64,000 nt of DNA, from positions 1,152,001 to 1,216,000 of the forward strand of contig OZ241456.1 in assembly GCA_965200875.1 (NCBI GenBank), given 5' to 3'. Shown piece by piece: positions 19,943-29,520 of this stretch; positions within the stretch are counted from its first letter, which is position 1; every line of letters starts with the position of its first letter. The notes beneath the pieces were generated by a model. It did not search any database, had not been told where the DNA came from, and was given only the letters and a program-made list of their open reading frames with translations. This stretch comes from Bdellovibrionales bacterium (GTDB taxonomy: Bacteria; Bdellovibrionota; Bdellovibrionia; Bdellovibrionales; UBA1609). A program made the position numbers and the translations under genes.

Positions 19943-22186
19943 ATGACTATCCAAACAACCGCTGAAATGCTCAGCAATATTTATGCCAGTAGCAAAAAGA
20001 ACCTTAATCAGGTAAAAAAATGGCACACTAAGCCTTTAACCCTGAGTGAGAAGATTTTGTTTTCCCACCTGCGTGAACCACACAAAAAACCAGAAACGAA
20101 TTTTTTACTCCTGCAACCGGATCGTGTTGCCATGCAAGATGTCACTGCCCAAATGGCACTTCTGCAATTTATGCTTTCTGGGAGAGAAAAATCCGCCGTG
20201 CCAGCCACGGTCCACTGTGATCACCTCATTCAAGCTTGGAAAGGCTCCCAACAGGATATGCAAAAATCCCTGGAGGAAAATAATGAAGTTTTTCAATTCC
20301 TTTCTTCTGCCTGTAGTCGTTTTCATATAGGTTTTTGGAAACCTGGTGCTGGTATTATTCATCAGGTGATTCTGGAAAATTACGCTTTCCCGGGCGGTTT
20401 GCTGATTGGAACAGACTCACATACCCCAAATGCTGGAGGACTGGGCATGTTGGCAATAGGTGTAGGGGGAGCAGATGCGGCCGATGTAATGGCAGGAATG
20501 CCTTGGGAAGTGAAAAAACCCGATATTACAGGTGTTCATTTAAAAGGAAAACTAAAAGGATGGGCTTCTCCCAAAGACATTATTTTAAAATTATTGGGAA
20601 TTTTAACTGTTAAAGGAGGCACCAATAAAATTATAGAATACTTCGGAGAAGGTTCTGCTTCTTTAAGCTGTACAGGAAAAGCCACTATTACCAACATGGG
20701 GGCGGAATTGGGAGCCACCTGCTCCGTATTTCCTTATGATTCTGCCATGTTGGAATATCTCACCGCTACTTATCGTGCCGATCAAGCAGAAGTTATTGAA
20801 AAGTATAAAGATCTGTTTCTTGCTGATGCTGAAGTGACAGCAGATCCTCACAAATATTATAATGAAGTCCTTGAAATTGACTTATCCACTTTGGAGCCTC
20901 AGCTGGCCGGCCCTCACTCCCCTGATGCTGTACGCCCCTTAAGTGAAATAAAACATATCCTTGAAAAAGAAAAATGGCCTGTCAAACTTTCTTCAGCCCT
21001 CATTGGTTCTTGTACCAATTCCTCTTACGAAGACATAGGCCGAGCCGCTCATGTAGCTCGTCAGGCACACTCAGCGGGATTCAAAATGCCCCAGCATTTT
21101 CTGGTAACTCCCGGTTCTGAACTCATTAGAAAAACCATAGAAAGAGACGGATACATAAAAGACTTTTCAGCCATTGGCGCACTTGTGCTGGCTAACGCCT
21201 GTGGCCCCTGTATTGGTCAATGGAAAAGAGAGGACTCCAAAAAAGGGCAGGTGAACACCATTTTAAATAGCTTTAACCGAAACTTTCGAGGCAGAAATGA
21301 CGCCAACCCGGAAACTCTTTCTTTTATCGCCAGCCCGGAAATCACCATTGCTTTGGGCCTTGCCGGACGATTGGATTTTAATCCTCAAACAGATTTTCTG
21401 GAAAGAGAAGGAAAAAAATTAAAATTACTACCGCCGAAATCAGATATTTTGCCAAAAAAAGGATTTTATCAGGAAAAGGAGAAAGGGTATGTTGCTCCAA
21501 AAGGCAAAGATATTCAAATTATTATAAGAGAGCCGTCAGAGAGATTACAGCTTTTAAAGCCTTTCCCTCCTTGGAACAAGGAAGATTTTAAAAATCTGTT
21601 CATCTTATGCAAAGCCAAGGGAAAATGCACAACAGACCATATTTCCCCGGCTGGATTTTGGCTCAGATACCGAGGACATTTGGATCGCATTTCTGATAAC
21701 CTATTATTGGGAGCGATAAACAGCTTCACCGAAGAAAGAGGCACAGGTCTGAATCAACTAACAGGAGAAAAACAACCTTTCTCCAAAATCGCCCGACACT
21801 ATAAATCACAAAACAAACCTTGGGCGATTATTGGTGACGAAAATTATGGTGAGGGAAGCAGTCGCGAACATGCGGCTATGACCCCTAAGTACTTAGGGGC
21901 CAAGGTGGTTATCGTAAAAAGTTTCGCGCGCATTCACGAGACCAATCTTAAAAAACAAGGGATTCTTCCTCTGGTTTTCACACAACCGAAAGACATAAAA
22001 AAACTAAAAGAAAAAGATCAGCTGGATATTTTGGATTTGGAAAATCTAAAACCAAACAGTCAACATAAAATATTGGTTCACCATGAAGACGGGTCTCAAG
22101 AGGAGTTTTTAGTTTCCCATTCCATGAACACAGATCAAATAAAATGGTTCCGGGCTGGTTCTGCTTTAAATCTCATCAGACAATAA
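19943..22186 (+). CDS. Aconitate hydratase (mitochondrial-like type)
   Basis: DRVAMQD, HCDH, GTDSHT, IGSCTNSSYED, ANACGPCIGQW, TTDHISPAG, NYGEGSSREHAA. Confidence 0.95.
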   Translation: MTIQTTAEMLSNIYASSKKNLNQVKKWHTKPLTLSEKILFSHLREPHKKPETNFLLLQPDRVAMQDVTAQMALLQFMLSGREKSAVPATVHCDHLIQAWKGSQQDMQKSLEENNEVFQFLSSACSRFHIGFWKPGAGIIHQVILENYAFPGGLLIGTDSHTPNAGGLGMLAIGVGGADAADVMAGMPWEVKKPDITGVHLKGKLKGWASPKDIILKLLGILTVKGGTNKIIEYFGEGSASLSCTGKATITNMGAELGATCSVFPYDSAMLEYLTATYRADQAEVIEKYKDLFLADAEVTADPHKYYNEVLEIDLSTLEPQLAGPHSPDAVRPLSEIKHILEKEKWPVKLSSALIGSCTNSSYEDIGRAAHVARQAHSAGFKMPQHFLVTPGSELIRKTIERDGYIKDFSAIGALVLANACGPCIGQWKREDSKKGQVNTILNSFNRNFRGRNDANPETLSFIASPEITIALGLAGRLDFNPQTDFLEREGKKLKLLPPKSDILPKKGFYQEKEKGYVAPKGKDIQIIIREPSERLQLLKPFPPWNKEDFKNLFILCKAKGKCTTDHISPAGFWLRYRGHLDRISDNLLLGAINSFTEERGTGLNQLTGEKQPFSKIARHYKSQNKPWAIIGDENYGEGSSREHAAMTPKYLGAKVVIVKSFARIHETNLKKQGILPLVFTQPKDIKKLKEKDQLDILDLENLKPNSQHKILVHHEDGSQEEFLVSHSMNTDQIKWFRAGSALNLIRQ

Positions 22187-22247: not shown

Positions 22248-22511
22248 ACTTTTTGATTGGACCAACCTTAAAACAGAAGCCACAACTTTTATTGACAAAT
22301 CCGCAAAAGAAAAACGCATGGATCTCCTTTAAATGTGTCAAAGGAGGCCAGGGATTTGATAACTCGTCCTATTTTGTATATTTTAAAACATATCTGGCGA
22401 CTTGATGAATCAAAAGTGAAAGAGCTTTTTACGATAGGTCAGGGTCTTAGTTCCAGTGAGCGAGAGGCATTGATCGGTCGAGCAGTAGATTATATACGGC
22501 GATATGATCCA
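22248..22511 (+). repeat. 264-bp direct repeat, copy 1 (internal fragment of broken Rpn gene)
   Basis: Near-identical to 28435-28698, from ACTTTTTGATTGGACC to GATATGATCCA. Confidence 0.92.
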
Positions 22512-22742
22512 ATAATGGAATCCATATATCATATTTTTAATAAACTTCTTTCCTATTGGAATTTTATTAAAAAACGGTCTAAAAATGGCTTCTTGAAAGG
22601 AAAGAGGCCAGATTCTTTGTTCAATCATTGTACAACCATGTAAAGATTACACTAGTTGTTCTTAACAGTTTCAATTTTTTAACTTTTGAGTATAATCAGT
22701 CGGGACTGAATAATCAAATAAACCCAAACAAGGAGGTTACTA

Positions 22743-23402
22743 ATGAAATTAATAATTACTTTACTATTTTTAAGCTTAGGTGCTTTTAGTTATGGCCAGA
22801 ATGAGGCTGAACAATCTTCTAGAAAGGTGGAAAGTGACACTCCTATTGGTATTATGGCGACTATTTATGATTTGTATGGCCTGTATGACCGGGTCACTGG
22901 CTCTTCTTCATGTAATATAAATAATTATTTTAATGAATATAGATATAAAGAAAGGAAGGATATATTTAAGTGTGATTTGCAAGGAGCGGATATGCGAGAG
23001 GCGAATTTGAGTAATGCTACTTTGAATTTTTCGAATTTAATAGAGGCAAATTTGAGTTTTGCAAATTTACATAAGGCACATGCAGTAGGTTCAAATTTTT
23101 ATAAAGCAGATTTGACTGGTGCAGATTTGCGGGAAACGATATTGGTTGACGCAAATTTTTTAATGGCAGATTTGACTGGGGCGAATATGTCTGGGGCGGA
23201 TTTGCGTTTTTCAGGTTTTAAACTGGCGAATTTAACTGGGGTGAATCTGACTGGGGCGGATTTGCGTTTTGTGTATTTTAGTGACACGAATTTTACTGAT
23301 GTAAATATGAGCAATGCAAAAGTTGATCCAGACTTGGCGACTTTTTTAACTTCACAAGGTATAAGTGGTTTTATTGTTGTTGATGAGGAGGAAGGTAAAT
23401 AA
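22743..23402 (+). CDS. Secreted pentapeptide-repeat protein (cassette 1a)
   Basis: Signal peptide MKLIITLLFLSLGAFSYG; A(D/N)Lxx repeats; AAGGAGG RBS. Confidence 0.92.
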   Translation: MKLIITLLFLSLGAFSYGQNEAEQSSRKVESDTPIGIMATIYDLYGLYDRVTGSSSCNINNYFNEYRYKERKDIFKCDLQGADMREANLSNATLNFSNLIEANLSFANLHKAHAVGSNFYKADLTGADLRETILVDANFLMADLTGANMSGADLRFSGFKLANLTGVNLTGADLRFVYFSDTNFTDVNMSNAKVDPDLATFLTSQGISGFIVVDEEEGK

Positions 23403-23971
23403 TGAAATTAATAATTGCTTTACTTTTTTTAAGCTTAGGAGCTTTGAGCTATGGCCAGAATGAGGCTACCTGTAATATTGATAATTATCGAGACTATATT
23501 TATACACCCGGAAATCATCAGTGCGATTTGTTCAGGGCGGATTTGACTGGGGCGAATTTACAAGATGCAAATTTTACTGGGGCGAATTTGGGCGGGGCGA
23601 ATCTGACTGGGGCGAATTTGCGAAGGGCGAATTTGTCCAATGCGAATATAGCTGGGGCGATTTTGACCAATGCGGATTTGGAAGGGGCGAATTTGTCCAA
23701 TGCTAGGTTGATAATGGCGAATTTGGTATGGGGTAATTTGACTAATGCGAATATGTACGGGGCGAATTTGATAATGGCGGATTTGACTGGGGCGAATTTG
23801 TCCAATGCTAGTTTGATAATGGCGAATATGTACGGGACGAATTTGTACGATGCGGATTTGACAGGGGTAATTTTAACCTCTGCGAAAGTTAATCCGGCCT
23901 TGGCGACTTATTTAACTTCACAAGGTGTAAGTGGTTTTGTTGTTGTTGAATTTGAGAATTTGAGGAAATAG
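23402..23971 (+). CDS. Secreted pentapeptide-repeat protein (cassette 1b)
   Basis: TAATG overlap with upstream gene; signal peptide; ANLTG/ANLSN repeats. Confidence 0.92.
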   Translation: MKLIIALLFLSLGALSYGQNEATCNIDNYRDYIYTPGNHQCDLFRADLTGANLQDANFTGANLGGANLTGANLRRANLSNANIAGAILTNADLEGANLSNARLIMANLVWGNLTNANMYGANLIMADLTGANLSNASLIMANMYGTNLYDADLTGVILTSAKVNPALATYLTSQGVSGFVVVEFENLRK

Positions 23972-24031
23972 AAGAATAAACACTTTACTGCCTCTTAGGC
24001 AGTAGAATGTCTACTACTCTCTTTTGGTTTG

Positions 24032-24070
24032 CGAAAAGCCTGTCTACCTCAGACGGGTTTTTTCGTTTTC
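24032..24070 (+). terminator. Intrinsic terminator at cassette end
   Basis: CGAAAAGCCTGTCT-ACCTC-AGACGGGTTTTTTCG hairpin plus T-tract. Confidence 0.75.
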
Positions 24071-24076
24071 TGGAAA

Positions 24077-24233
24077 GGGAATCATAAGCAACCGGGGTCG
24101 GTTGTATATCGCGAAAGGGGGGTTACGGTTTTCCCCCGTCTCAAAACCCCCTTTTTATGCACTTATTCCCGCGGGAAAAGATGGAGACCCACCCACCGCG
24201 ATATATGATGCCCCCCTTTTCTTTATGATTCCC
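24077..24233. repeat. ~157-bp imperfect palindromic inter-cassette element E1
   Basis: GGGAATCATAA...TATATCGCG...TTTTCCC / GGGAAAA...CGCGATATA...TTATGATTCCC. Confidence 0.92.
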
Positions 24234-24340
24234 TATATATTTTTAATAGTCGTGTAAATATTTCACGGGCTTGTTTTTTTATTAAGTGTTTTTCATAAAC
24301 ACCTGTATTATGCAAATAAACCCAAACAAGGAGGTTACTA

Positions 24341-24934
24341 ATGAAATTAATAATTGCTTTATTGTTTTTAAGCTTAGGTGCTTTGAGCTATGGCCAGAAT
24401 GAGGCTAAGGCTACCTGTAATATTGATAATTATCGAGACTATATCTATACGCCAGGAGAGCATAAGTGCGATTTATCAGGGGCAGATTTTACCGATGCGG
24501 ATTTGACTAGGGCGAATTTGACTAGGGCGAATTTGACTAGGGCGAATTTGACTAGGGCGATTTTGACCAGGGCGAATTTGTACGGGGCGAATTTGTACGG
24601 GGCGGATTTGACTAGGGCGATTTTGGTTGAGGCGGATTTGAGATATGCGAATTTGTACGGGGCGAATTTGTACGGGGCGGATTTGACTAGGGCGATTTTG
24701 GTTGAGGCGGATTTGAGATATGCGAATTTGCGAGGGGCAACTTTGCGATGGGCAACTTTGCGATTGGCGAATTTGTACGGGGCGGATTTGTTCATAAGTA
24801 AATTTGGTATTAAAGGGGCATTTTTTTCTGGGGCGAAAGTTGATCGGTTCGCAGCGTATTTTTTATACCCACTAGGTATAAGGGATTTTGTTGTTATTGA
24901 AGACGACCCTGCAGAAAACATAATAAATGAATAA
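24341..24934 (+). CDS. Secreted pentapeptide-repeat protein (cassette 2)
   Basis: N-terminus nearly identical to cassette 1b; ANLTR tandem repeats. Confidence 0.92.
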   Translation: MKLIIALLFLSLGALSYGQNEAKATCNIDNYRDYIYTPGEHKCDLSGADFTDADLTRANLTRANLTRANLTRAILTRANLYGANLYGADLTRAILVEADLRYANLYGANLYGADLTRAILVEADLRYANLRGATLRWATLRLANLYGADLFISKFGIKGAFFSGAKVDRFAAYFLYPLGIRDFVVIEDDPAENIINE

Positions 24935-24998
24935 ACACTTTACTGTCTAGGAGGCAGATAATCTTCTACATTATAATTTTCATAACTTCCTTTGGTTA

Positions 24999-25038
24999 GA
25001 AGAAGCCTGTTTTAATCTCAGACGGGTTTTTTCGTTTT
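24999..25038 (+). terminator. Intrinsic terminator at cassette end
   Basis: GAAGAAGCCTGTTT...AGACGGGTTTTTTCGTTTT, homologous to 24032-24070. Confidence 0.65.
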
Positions 25039-25044
25039 GAGAAA

Positions 25045-25201
25045 GGGAATCATAATCAACCGGGGTCGGTTGTATATCGCGAAAGGGGGGTTACGGTTTT
25101 CCCCCCGTCTCAAAACCCGCTTTTTATGCACTTATTCCCGCGGGAAAAGATGTGAACCCACCCTCCGCGATAGATGATGCCCCCCTTTTCTTTATGATTC
25201 C
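25045..25201. repeat. Inter-cassette palindromic element E2
   Basis: Left arm nearly identical to E1; ends TTATGATTCC. Confidence 0.92.
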
Positions 25202-25277
25202 ATTTATTTTTTATAGTTTTCGCCGATAATGTAAAAAGATAGGTGGATAATTAATTCACTTTAAAAAGGAGTATTTT

Positions 25278-26029
25278 ATGAAAACTATAATTGCTTTATT
25301 GTTTTTAAGCTTATGTTTTTTAGGTTGTGAGAAAAAAGATAGTGGTTCAAGTGGAGCAACCACCGCCGGTGCTGAAGCTGGCGCGGGATCAACCACCGCC
25401 GGTGCTGAAGCTGGCGCGGGATCAACCACCGCCGGTGCTAACCCTAGTGTAGTGGTTAACACAGCAGGTTCTGAAGCTGGAGTAAATGTTCAATCGGAAG
25501 CGGATGCTCCAGTGTGTAATATCTATAATTACAAAGAGTATATAAAAAAAAACGGAGAGCATAAGTGCGATTTGTCCGGTGCGAATTTGCACAGGGAGAT
25601 TTTGCAAGGCGCGAATTTGCAAGGCGCGAATTTGCAAGGCGCGAATTTGACAGAGGCGGATTTGGGCTATACGAATTTGAACCATGCGAATTTGAGCAAT
25701 GCGAATTTGAGCAATGCGAATCTGTACTGGGCGGATTTGCAAGATGCGAATTTGAGCAATGCGAATTTGAGTAATGCGAATTTGAGAGCGACGGATTTAC
25801 ACAGGTCGGATTTGAGCGGTGCGGATTTGAGCGGTGCGGATTTGAGAAGTGCGAATCTGTACTGGGCGGATTTGCAAGATGCGAATTTGAGCAATGCGAA
25901 TTTGGTTGAAACTATTTTGCGAGGGGTGAATTTCACCGGTGCGAATTTCACCGGTGCGAAAGTTAATCAGAGGTGGCGAATTATTTACTCTCAAAAGGTA
26001 TAGTCGGATATAAAATTGTCGAAGACTGA
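25278..26029 (+). CDS. Lipoprotein pentapeptide-repeat protein (cassette 3) with 3' frameshift
   Basis: FLGC lipobox; 33-bp tandem repeat linker; pentapeptide repeats; ORF stops at 26003 but the family C-cap EVANYLLSKGIVGYKIVED* continues in another frame to 26029. Confidence 0.85.
25357..25439 (+). repeat. 33-bp tandem repeat x2.5 (TTAGAEAGAGS)
   Basis: CAACCACCGCCGGTGCTGAAGCTGGCGCGGGAT repeated. Confidence 0.9.
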
Positions 26030-26062
26030 ATTGTATTTATTTTTCATAATTCCATTTGTTGT

Positions 26063-26100
26063 GAAAAGCCTCTGTATCTCAGACGGGCTTTTTCGTTTTT
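26063..26100 (+). terminator. Intrinsic terminator at cassette end
   Basis: GAAAAGCCTCTG...CAGACGGGCTTTTTCGTTTTT. Confidence 0.65.
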
Positions 26101-26106
26101 AGGAAA

Positions 26107-26261
26107 GGGAATCATAAGCAACCGGGTAGCTGTTATATATCGCTTTTAGGGGTGCACATTTTCCCCCCAGAATAGAGGCGTTTTTATGCAGTTATTTCCC
26201 AGAGGAAAACTGTGACCCACCCACCGCAATATATGATGCCCCCCTTTTCTTTATGATTCCC
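26107..26261. repeat. Inter-cassette palindromic element E3 (most diverged copy)
   Basis: Same GGGAATCATAA/TTATGATTCCC ends; internal arms differ from E1/E2. Confidence 0.9.
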
Positions 26262-26337
26262 TTTTATTTTTTATAGTTTTCGCCTATAATGTAAAAAGAT
26301 AGGTGGATAATTAATTCACTTTAAAAAGGAGTATTTT

Positions 26338-26592
26338 ATGAAAACTATAATTATTATCTTTTGTCTTTTGTTGTCCATTGGAGCTTATGCTAGTGGGGAC
26401 ATGCAAACATTAAGGGACATGGATGCAATTCAACAGGAATACCAGCGCATACAATCAAATTTAAATGACCTTGATCGTCGGTTTAATCAGGCAATGCTAA
26501 AACTATATGACATGCAAAGTGAAAAAAGAAACCTTGAGCAAAATCTTAATCAATGTATTCAACAGCTTAACCGGCAAAATTCCCAGCAATAA
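26338..26592 (+). CDS. Small secreted coiled-coil hypothetical protein (cassette 4)
   Basis: Signal peptide ending AYA; Q/N-rich heptads; leader and RBS nearly identical to cassette 3. Confidence 0.75.
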   Translation: MKTIIIIFCLLLSIGAYASGDMQTLRDMDAIQQEYQRIQSNLNDLDRRFNQAMLKLYDMQSEKRNLEQNLNQCIQQLNRQNSQQ

Positions 26593-26596
26593 AACT

Positions 26597-26681
26597 GGCG
26601 TTTTTTGGCACTTATTCCCGCGGGAAAAGATGTGAACCCACCCACCGCGATGTATGATGCCCCCCTTTTCTTTATGATTCC
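26597..26681. repeat. Half element E4 (right arm only)
   Basis: GGCGTTTTTTGGCACTTATTCCCGCGGGAAAAG...TTATGATTCC; no left arm or terminator. Confidence 0.88.
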
Positions 26682-26789
26682 TTTTATTTTTTTTACAGGC
26701 GTGTAAAGATTTCACAGTGCTATTTTTTTATTAGTGGTTTTTCATAAACACCTGTATTATGCAAATAAACCCGAAAAAGGAGGTCACTA

Positions 26790-27395
26790 ATGAAATTAAT
26801 AATTACTTTACTTTTTTTAAGCTTAGGTGCTTTGAGCTATGGCCATAGTCCAAAGCCCGCGCCATTTCCTGTTATGCTGTTCCAATTTGATTATTGGCTA
26901 TTCTCTGACTCTTCATGTGATATCGAGAATTATTTTGATGAATATAGATATAAGGAAAGGGCTGATATATTTAAGTGTGATTTGCAAGGAGCGGATTTGC
27001 GAGATGCGAATTTGAGTGATGCTACTTTGAATTTTTCGGATTTGGAAGATGTAATTTTAACCGATGCGAATTTGTACAAGTTACATGCAATAGGATCAAA
27101 GTTTAATAAAGCAGATTTGACTGGTGTAGATTTGCGTGAAGCGGTATTACAAAACGCGCTTTTGCTCTGGGCGAATTTGAGCAATGCGAATATGGCCGGG
27201 GCGAATTTGACTTTTGCGAGTTTTGCAGAGGCGAATTTGAGTGGTGCAAATTTTACAGGTGCGCTTTTGCGTAATGCGTATTTTGGAAATGCGAAATTTA
27301 TTAACGAGGCGATTTTTACCGATGCGAAAGTTGATCCGGATTTGGGTGCTTATTTAACCTCACATGGTGTAAGTGGTTTTATTGTTGTTGAATAA
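26790..27395 (+). CDS. Secreted pentapeptide-repeat protein (cassette 5), paralog of cassette 1a
   Basis: Shares EYRYKER.DIFKCDLQGAD and AKVDPDL with 22743-23402. Confidence 0.92.
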   Translation: MKLIITLLFLSLGALSYGHSPKPAPFPVMLFQFDYWLFSDSSCDIENYFDEYRYKERADIFKCDLQGADLRDANLSDATLNFSDLEDVILTDANLYKLHAIGSKFNKADLTGVDLREAVLQNALLLWANLSNANMAGANLTFASFAEANLSGANFTGALLRNAYFGNAKFINEAIFTDAKVDPDLGAYLTSHGVSGFIVVE

Positions 27396-27439
27396 AATTA
27401 CTCTGATTTTTATATAATTTTCATAATTCCTTTTTTGGT

Positions 27440-27479
27440 GAAAAGCCTGGCCCATATCCTGTCGGGTTTTTTCGTTTTT
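27440..27479 (+). terminator. Intrinsic terminator at cassette end
   Basis: GAAAAGCCTGGC...GTCGGGTTTTTTCGTTTTT. Confidence 0.65.
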
Positions 27480-27485
27480 AGGAAG

Positions 27486-27642
27486 GGGAATCATAATCAA
27501 CCGGGTGCGGTTGTATATCGCTAAGGGTGGGTGACCATTTTCCCCCCGTCTCAAAACCCCCTTTTTATGCACTTATTCCCGCGGGAAAAGATGGTGACCC
27601 ACCCTAGCGATGTAGATTGCCCACCCTCTCTTTATGATTCCC
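27486..27642. repeat. Palindromic element E5, adjacent to the recombinase stop codon
   Basis: Arms TATATCGCTAAGGGTGGGTGACCATTTTCCC and GGGAAAAGATGGTGACCCACCCTAGCGATGTA are near-perfect inverted repeats. Confidence 0.92.
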
Positions 27643-27649
27643 ATGATAT

Positions 27650-28234
27650 TTACTCCAGGCCGTTTCTGTCTGCCACCCGCAACACACTTGTTTTGTGCCA
27701 GCGTTTTCCCCACCTTGAGGGTTCGCCTTGTTCGTTTAAAGCATCGGCTATTTCCTGAAATGTCTTTCCCTGACGCCTTAGAAACTTAATGAATGGAATA
27801 ACCCGCTTGTCCTCTCTTTGGGCCTTAGTAAGCTTAGGTGGTGGTGGTGGTTCTTTCTTTGCCTTTTTCTTTTGTTCTTTTACAATAGCTTTGTGTTGTT
27901 TTTTATATTCTCTCCAATACCGGTGTAACCCCCGTCTCACAGCCGGGATATGATACCCAAGCTTTACACCTTGTCTCTTTTTCTCAGCCAGGGCCTCTTT
28001 GGTTCGCTTGGCTATTTGTTCACGCTCCCACCTGGCCATAACACCCATGAACCCGATTGTTTCACGGGTCGCCTCCGGCATATCACAGCACACAAATTTA
28101 ATAGCAGTGTTTTGCAACCAGCCGATAAAAGCCAAGTCACGGCTTAAGCGATCGAGCTTGGCCACAATCAAAGTGCACAATAAAGATAGCCTAGAACGAT
28201 TTTCTGTAAATACCTCTTTTTTTGACTCTTCCAA
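27650..28234 (-). pseudogene. Serine recombinase (resolvase/Pin-like catalytic domain plus C-terminal recombinase-type DNA-binding domain), N-terminally truncated
   Basis: LIVAKLDRLSRD, MARWEREQIAKRTKEAL..K..G.KLG, FQEIADALNEQG.PSRWGKRWHKTSVLR; no YxRVS catalytic motif seen upstream. Confidence 0.85.
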
Positions 28235-28324: not shown

Positions 28325-28980
28325 ATGAAAACAAAAAGAAATTTTTTACATGATCATTTATTCAAAGAAGTCTACTCGCAAACCAAATATTGTGTGGACA
28401 TATTAAGTCTTGTTCTCTCAAAAGAGGAAATGAAACTTTTTGATTGGACCAACCTTAAAACAGAAGCCACAACTTTTATTGACAAATCCGCAAAAGAAAA
28501 ACGCATGGATCTCCTTTAGATGTGTCAAATGAGGCCAGGGATTTGACAACTCGTCCTATTTTGTATATTTTAAAACATATCTGGCGACTTGATGAATCAA
28601 AAGTGAAAGAGCTTTTTACGATAGGTCAGGGTCTTAGTTCCAGTGAGCGAGAGGCATTGATCGGTCGAGCAGTAGATTATATACGGCGATATGATCCAGC
28701 ATTTAATTGGGAGATTGTAAAAGAGATTGAACAAGCCACAGTGAAAGAGGAGGGAAGAATTATGATGCCATTATTAAAATCTTCGTATGATGAAGCTAGG
28801 CAGGAAGGCATGCAACAAGGCCGTCAGGAAGGTATACAGGAAGGCATGCAACAAGGCCGTCAGGAAGGTCAAAAAGAGCTGATTGCAAAATTACTTAAAA
28901 CTGGAGTGGATTTGCAAGCTCTTTGTAAAGGTACAGGACTTTCCGAAGAAGAAATTAAAAAACTTAAAACTGACGACTAA
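28325..28980 (+). pseudogene. Rpn/YhgA-like (transposase_31) nuclease with internal deletion and stop
   Basis: HDHLFKEVYS...FID...RMDLL then stop at 28519; downstream part has QEG repeats and TGLSEEEIKKL; middle of the protein missing. Confidence 0.82.
28435..28698 (+). repeat. 264-bp direct repeat, copy 2
   Basis: Matches 22248-22511. Confidence 0.92.
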
Positions 28981-29031: not shown

Positions 29032-29520
29032 TTATTCAACAACAACAAAACCACTTATACCTTGTGAAGTTAAAAAAGTCGCCAATTTCTGATCAACTTT
29101 CGCACCGGTGAAATCCGCCCCATTCAAAATCGCACCGGTAAAATGCGCATAACGCAACCACGCCTCGGAGAAATTCGCCCCGATCAAATTCGCATTCGCA
29201 AAATTCACCCATTGCAAAGACGCATAACTAAAATTCACCATTTGCAAAAATGACCCTTGAAAATTCGCATCAGCCAAATCCGCCCAGCTAAAATCCGCGC
29301 CGTTCAAATCCGCGACACTCAAATTCGCATTACGCAAATTCGCATAGCTAAAATTCGCCCCTTGCAAATATAACTCGTTTAAATTCACTTCTTGCAAATT
29401 ACAATTATGCCGGCCCGGCTGAGTCACAAAATCCAAAAAGTTATCCTTAGTACATCTTTCATTTTGGCCATAACTAAAAGCACCTAAGCTTAAAAATAAT
29501 AAAACAATTATAGTTTTCAT
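29032..29520 (-). CDS. Secreted pentapeptide-repeat protein (outlying paralog)
   Basis: Signal peptide, ANFS/ADL repeats, C-cap AKVDQKLATFLTSQGISGFVVVE. Confidence 0.92.
   Translation of the reverse strand: MKTIIVLLFLSLGAFSYGQNERCTKDNFLDFVTQPGRHNCNLQEVNLNELYLQGANFSYANLRNANLSVADLNGADFSWADLADANFQGSFLQMVNFSYASLQWVNFANANLIGANFSEAWLRYAHFTGAILNGADFTGAKVDQKLATFLTSQGISGFVVVE

Follow-up and report, generated by a model that had tools for sequence, protein, structure and literature searches.

An array of secreted-protein genes separated by arm-and-core elements beside a truncated serine recombinase in a Bdellovibrionales genome

The DNA considered here, hereafter the window, is a 64,000-nucleotide stretch (G000:C1:1152001-1216000) of the Bdellovibrionales genome under study, G000, which measures 1.87 Mb and was estimated to be 94.5% complete. 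The window harbors an array of small genes separated by copies of an element of about 157 bp and followed by the remnant of a short serine recombinase gene. An earlier note on this DNA had proposed that these components form a cassette system, in which the palindromic element would serve as the recombination site. Comparison within the genome and across 109 genomes of its family (the other G numbers denote relatives) showed that the element belongs to a real site family, which appears to be undescribed.

The gene array and its flanks

Six co-oriented small genes, all with signal-peptide-like starts, occupy positions 22743-27395 of the forward strand, as the earlier note had described. Five of them are pentapeptide-repeat paralogues with a mutual identity of 32-56%: gene 1 (22743-23402, secreted-type, 219 amino acids), gene 2 (23402-23971, 189 amino acids), gene 3 (24341-24934, 197 amino acids), gene 4 (25278-26003, lipoprotein-type, 241 amino acids) and gene 6 (26790-27395, 201 amino acids). 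The remaining gene (26338-26592), secreted-type and coiled-coil-like, encodes 84 amino acids and is unrelated to the other five, so that the unrelated cargo pointed out by the note is present. Genes 1 and 2 overlap from stop to start and no element separates them; the array therefore comprises five units, and not the six that had been counted.

Four full copies of the element, of 155-158 bp and without assigned strand, are present in the window: E1 (24077-24233), composed of a left arm, a core (24143-24166) and an inverted right arm; E2 (25045-25202, core 25112-25135); E3 (26107-26261, core 26172-26195), which is the most divergent copy of the window; and E5 (27486-27642, core 27553-27576). 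The fifth copy, E4 (26591-26682, likewise without strand), is partial, since it has lost the left arm and retains the right arm and a core that exceeds those of the other copies by one base. The full copy found behind a paralogous gene at G000:C1:1511243 served as the reference, from which it was clear that E4 keeps the whole core; it is a partial element and not a clean half site. As for the terminators of the proposed units of leader, gene, terminator and palindrome, only the intrinsic-terminator-like hairpin preceding E1 (24033-24063, forward strand) passed the terminator scan; similar hairpins precede E2, E3 and E5, and none is present before E4. As reported earlier, only 7 bp lie between the end of E5 and the stop codon of a convergent open reading frame (ORF; 27650-28234, reverse strand, with homology starting near 28171) that carries a Resolvase catalytic domain and a truncated Recombinase domain.

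The array and the recombinase remnant are bracketed by a direct repeat of 264 bp derived from an Rpn/YhgA-like gene, whose two copies (22248-22511 and 28435-28698) are 99% identical. The first is a gene piece on the forward strand, and the second is contained in a broken Rpn/YhgA-like gene represented by two ORFs (28325-28980, forward strand). Rpn-like genes also adjoin most arrays in G000, G032 and G084. The island is directly preceded by an aconitase ORF (19943-22186, 747 amino acids; remarked on at window positions 21890-21892), and the recombinase fragments of G093 likewise lie behind an aconitase gene. Around 50 signal-peptide-bearing pentapeptide-repeat ORFs, such as that at 29032-29520 of the window, were found in G000, an unusual expansion.

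The neighbors of these genes vary between loci. Gene 4 has a 91% identical copy at G000:C1:1328232, which is followed by an element and then by a different gene, while the 98% identical copy of gene 1 at G000:C1:1236781 heads another gene order. Elsewhere in G000, elements precede a phage-type Dam methylase gene, a pilin-like gene and genes of no assigned function. Co-oriented genes in variable order are a feature that these arrays have in common with integrons.

Structure and dispersal of the element

The element is not confined to the window. The first arm model, trained on G000 alone, identified 36 arms genome-wide at a profile E below 0.01 (37 with model R1): ten copies have two arms each, and a further 16 arms are single or partial. 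In the 157-bp form, a 24-bp palindromic core (AAAAC-N14-GTTTT, with a T-tract at its center) is shared by two homologous, mutually inverted arms of about 60 bp; this form has perfect terminal inverted repeats of 11 bp. Besides the arm-core-arm form (10 copies), arm-core-other, other-core-arm and bare-core forms occur in G000, and the polarity of the T-tract is flipped in three of the ten full copies and in one G031 site. The second contig of this genome (G000:C2, 43 kb) contained neither arm nor recombinase; it carries phage-like genes (terminase-like and large structural ORFs, judged by eye) and shows no similarity to C1.

The palindrome folds well, in that the E1 fold beat all of 200 shuffled sequences (z of -3.8 as DNA and -4.5 as RNA). 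However, the arms of one copy paired no better with each other than with swapped arms (permutation p 0.90), and the identities of left and right halves were uncorrelated over the ten copies (Spearman 0.11 over 45 pairs, which are not independent). Neighboring quarters of the element correlated at 0.46 and 0.59 within halves versus 0.20 across the center. Since the halves assort independently, the element reads as a double-stranded site; an RNA or single-strand function was rejected. Thus, of the claim that the palindrome is the recombination site, the 24-bp double-stranded core with accessory arms appears to be the part that holds, and the folded palindrome does not.

The hairpin potential of the element, and a core that also admits a reading as 9-bp arms flanking an asymmetric spacer of 6 bp, would suit divergent attC or Xer-type sites of a tyrosine recombinase, which we consider the least probable explanation of all. 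The attC boxes (motif RYYYAAC ... GTTRRRY) were found in none of the ten full copies on either strand, the hairpin arms are not co-adapted, and the core has no known resemblance to dif. Two tyrosine recombinases per genome were detected in four of the five genomes checked (G000, G031, G080 and G084); those of G000 matched XerD and XerC best, with 104 and 110 bits, far below the integron-integrase (IntI) cut-off of 265. IntI was not found in this 94.5% complete genome, and the attC reading was rejected on the missing boxes and the missing integrase.

The size of 157 bp, the perfect terminal repeats and the dispersal recall, in turn, a miniature inverted-repeat transposable element (MITE) or abutted transposon ends mobilized by a transposase in trans. 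This is very improbable, since a target duplication was absent (0-1 bp) in ten of ten full copies and the flanks are stereotyped instead of random, which largely refutes a MITE; moreover, the halves assort independently, and relatives show single arms or a longer middle. In the stereotyped arrangement, left arms come after a terminator or stop codon and right arms precede a leader and gene start. Searches of Rfam, plasmids and phages with the element returned no match. On the tests run, the expectation that the element is neither attC nor MITE was borne out.

One copy, at G000:C1:706686, joins unrelated DNA exactly at the core center. E4 and the pair at 704/706 kb had been candidates for clean attL/attR halves, which was discarded, as only the 706686 copy breaks at the center.

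The recombinase, its relatives and the linked sites

The recombinase ORF of the window matches residues 75-247 of a 247-amino-acid relative with 95% identity. The gene belongs to the family named by the earlier note, but it is not complete: it is 5′-truncated and without the catalytic YxRxS motif. The catalytic N-terminus was not found anywhere in G000, where the array appears to be a relic with a dead enzyme; for it to change further, an intact copy would have to arrive from outside or the host would have to recombine it. Another recombinase 3′ end lies 7 bp from the full element copy at G000:C1:1326391, representing the same junction in duplicate, while two further remnants, at 683632 and 1325278, are armless fragments. 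Intact relatives exist: among the 95 closest homologues, 76 have the full length and carry the catalytic motif. Contigs of three sponge metagenome runs matched parts of the array block at 85-99% identity, and contigs of three other runs extend past the truncation point into what we read as the missing gene part, indicating that longer copies exist in near strains.

In the predicted structure (pLDDT 85), a resolvase catalytic domain is accompanied by a long helix, which contains a basic insert, and by a small domain at the C-terminus, with Bxb1 (top) and gamma-delta resolvase as the best fold matches, and Pfam recognized Resolvase followed by a sub-threshold Recombinase piece (PF07508, residues 207-240 only). 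The clade was detected in eight of the 109 family genomes, often 5′-truncated and with 3′ ends facing lipoprotein gene arrays. At eight places in G084:C1, recombinase copies that are variably truncated at the 5′ side but complete at the 3′ end stand at the head of cysteine-rich lipoprotein gene arrays convergent with them, and the recombinase 3′ end is itself repeated between array genes. In G089 (C1:1189422-1190529), a near-complete recombinase is fused, back to back, to the inverted 3′ fragment of a divergent second copy. Scans of metagenomes, genomes and viruses retrieved almost only distant homologues (31-48% identity), and a sample of 401 genomes of the phylum contained no further clade member, the hit in G405 being a generic family member. 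Among 201 distant-homologue loci, ten repeat the recombinase flank, one of them being G084 itself.

The sites themselves recur in relatives. A plain DNA search with E1 reached two of 14 relatives, through the core, and the arm model of G000 matched in five of the 109 genomes, a match in G087 being discounted for lying inside a ribosomal gene. A second arm model, trained also on arms of G031, G032 and G080 and run on 40 of the 109 genomes, found 31 arms in G031, seven in G032 and one in G080, besides one marginal match. Arms or cores of this kind adjoin accessory genes in relatives belonging to two genera. In G031, single arms separate genes of a different secreted family, and 23 of 26 sites could be aligned at the core. 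Five of these 23 join unrelated DNA near the core center, their distal sides having at most ten bases in common with any other; at four of the five, the end of a gene coincides with the site or falls within it. A 33-kb array of this secreted repeat-protein family (G031:C1:1138040-1170903) contains 14 arms and an HNH gene and consists of two blocks in opposite orientation.

An even dyad of 24 bp is present in G000, G084, G083 and G080, and this even-spaced palindromic core is conserved between genomes whose arms have diverged. The pattern used to search for it was shaped on the cores of G000, G084, G090, G080 and G079, so that only the remaining genomes provide an independent test; it yielded 66 matches in 22 of the 109 genomes versus 12 for the reversed control. 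Isolated matches often fell inside genes, and such matches were left out of the counts. Cores occur in multiple copies in G000 (14), G084 (13), G090 (nine), G083 (six) and G031 (three), and G083, G090 and G079 are linked to the element by the core alone. A collection-wide scan for the core located 63 stretches; two records, both titled Bdellovibrionales, were the only ones to contain it repeatedly, and the single matches elsewhere were taken as chance. G090 and G079 also contain a repeat of about 360 bp, bounded by a 33-bp palindrome with the core, which lies upstream of pilin-like genes in either orientation and may be an invertible segment.

A physical linkage of site and recombinase is seen in four genomes, G000 and three relatives. 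G032, of another genus, has two full elements with both arms and an elongated middle, and an arm recognized by the G000-only model (E 5e-7) precedes an intact recombinase by about 100 bp. In G084, the core lies between a promoter-like arm and an arm of the G000 type, and one copy of core and arm abuts a truncated recombinase. In G080:C2, a contig that is probably a circle, a 15.4-kb unit is repeated twice, each unit carrying one core and one frameshifted recombinase, and pieces of the unit are dispersed over the chromosome. The unit also carries pilin-like, lipoprotein and zinc-finger genes, and the chromosome contains about six copies of a 78-bp stretch that directly follows the recombinase.

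The G080 unit and its dispersed pieces, the many 5′-truncated recombinase copies, and the Dam-methylase, HNH and zinc-finger genes that adjoin arms or remnants in G000, G031, G032 and G080 would fit attachment or resolution sites of a small element, plasmid- or phage-like, whose repeated integration together with its recombinase left the arrays as debris instead of a cassette system of the host. We regard this as improbable, because debris alone is insufficient to account for sites spaced by one or two genes among lineage-specific secreted proteins in two genera. A mobile-element origin invokes the same enzyme and site as the reading we favor below, is compatible with it and may be its origin.

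The main rival is a regulatory one, to which we assign a rather low probability. In this case, the element would be a promoter with a palindromic operator, a module copied together with expanding secreted-protein genes; the recombinase remnant would be a passenger of the island, and gene orders would differ through RecA recombination of long repeats and gene conversion. Right arms do stand mostly 40-150 bp ahead of start codons in a fixed orientation, many partial copies keep core and right arm as an intact unit, the promoter-like G084 arm resembles, in our reading, a sigma-70 promoter ending at a gene start, and the clade recombinase was not found in the element-rich G090 and G083 when the 109 genomes were searched, nor in G031. 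On the other hand, the array shows no excess of promoter-like sites (16 versus 15.2 expected), and homologous recombination leaves unexplained the center junctions with unrelated DNA. A regulatory module does not explain the flipped cores either, or the arms facing gene 3′ ends, the recombinase's included.

A res-like site family and its comparison with known systems

The conserved even-spaced core, the four forms expected of exchange at a core, the independent halves, the center-proximal junctions, the flipped cores, the variable neighbors and the physical linkage suggest that the elements are a family of res-like sites of the adjacent short serine recombinases, which joined and reordered gene units and are now a relic in this genome; we hold this to be an evenly balanced proposition. 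A broader reading is more tentative and on the whole unlikely: the short serine recombinase and its double-stranded sites of about 85 bp would constitute an integron analogue of sponge-associated Bdellovibrionales, which captures, stores and reorders genes of secreted or surface proteins. With the same reserve, cassette arrays would have been invented independently, and two-armed sites could have arisen by head-to-head recombination of one-armed sites.

The basic unit of such a system would be one accessory arm of about 60 bp with the 24-bp palindromic core. Serine recombinases cut with a 2-bp stagger; a recombinase dimer would bind each core, cut the double-stranded DNA at the central TT and swap the flanks. 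Exchange between co-oriented cores would release a gene unit in circular form, a further exchange, with another core, would re-insert or reorder it, and an occasional exchange with a look-alike sequence would bring in a new gene. Core exchange would yield the arm-core-arm, arm-core, core-arm and bare-core forms and unlink the halves, and the use of look-alike targets would leave center-proximal junctions.

Several observations weigh against these proposals. About ten partial G000 copies retain the entire core, their break lying beyond it, and several others are interrupted inside an arm, compared with six center-proximal junctions in G000 and G031 together. The first and third quarters of the element correlate at 0.40 across the center, whereby the break in linkage there is not clean. 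The best local dyad of G031 has an odd 3-bp center, five bases from the assigned one. Moreover, 33 of the 50 pentapeptide-like ORFs have no adjoining arm; for the most part, this family has thus grown, or is maintained, without the element. Enzyme and element occur together in four genomes, the element only in four and the enzyme only in four; hence, half of the eight element-positive genomes have no detectable clade recombinase, among them G031 (88% complete), which is the richest in arms and has the best junctions, and half of the eight recombinase-positive genomes have no convincing site. In G082, G085 and G089, neither an arm nor a convincing core was found within about 10 kb of near-intact recombinases, although weak cores may be present there and in G093, as no graded weight-matrix scan was made around the recombinases of these four genomes. 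The co-occurrence that the earlier note proposed to test is thus incomplete: besides the physical linkage in four genomes, Fisher's test at the genome level was not significant, with p 0.12 within the 29 genomes of three genera (p 0.0008 over the 109 genomes, inflated by kinship). The three flank-repeating loci of distant homologues that were inspected are not such arrays. Finally, neither an excised cassette nor a reordering was seen in contigs of the metagenome runs, whose joints are confounded by paralogues; of the capture and shuffling that had been proposed, the variable neighbors are observed and the events themselves are inferred.

To our knowledge, the described gene-cassette platforms rest on tyrosine recombinases. 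If the integron-analogue reading is true, cassette arrays evolved more than once, a very widespread family of serine recombinases of about 220-250 amino acids gains a function, and the diversification of lineage-specific secreted proteins in these small-genome bacteria is explained; it would also provide a compact recombinase with a candidate site, testable on plasmids. If the regulatory rival is true, the locus is an ordinary gene-family expansion.

Large serine integrases carry, behind the catalytic domain, a C-terminal part of Recombinase, zinc-ribbon and coiled-coil domains, and the recombinase described here, of only 247 amino acids when intact, has no room for the zinc-ribbon and coiled-coil part. 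It is predicted to resemble these enzymes (Bxb1, phiC31) in that Bxb1 is the top fold match of its model, and it is likewise predicted to share the resolvase catalytic fold with small serine resolvases. However, it ends in a truncated PF07508 after a long basic helix, whereas resolvases end in the usual helix-turn-helix. Resolvases use one site per replicon, unlike the up to 31 sites per genome found here, some of them two-armed. Large serine integrases and the phage phiRSM enzyme use one attP and one attB instead of arrays. MITEs and dispersed palindromes such as Correia, RPE and ERIC are similar in size, terminal inverted repeats and dispersal, but differ from the element, which has no target duplication and shows fixed flanks, a conserved center and independent halves.

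In the literature searched, which was mostly open-access and included PMC8987985, no description of a serine-recombinase cassette array or of the element was found. The phiRSM resolvase-like integrase is a small serine recombinase that both integrates and excises (PMC4471427). The resH site of Sin measures 86 bp and combines the crossover site I with one regulatory site (PMC2764113); a single arm with its core likewise measures about 85 bp, with the palindromic site at one end. Integrons differ from the present array, which is without IntI, attC boxes or hairpin co-adaptation, whose units have their own leaders and terminators, and whose recombinase is of the serine type and convergent with the array. 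Nevertheless, as in integrons and in CALIN, the integrase-less clusters of attC sites (PMC4889954), co-oriented accessory genes are split by copies of one site, a recombinase gene lies at one end of the array, and orphan clusters are found elsewhere in the genome.

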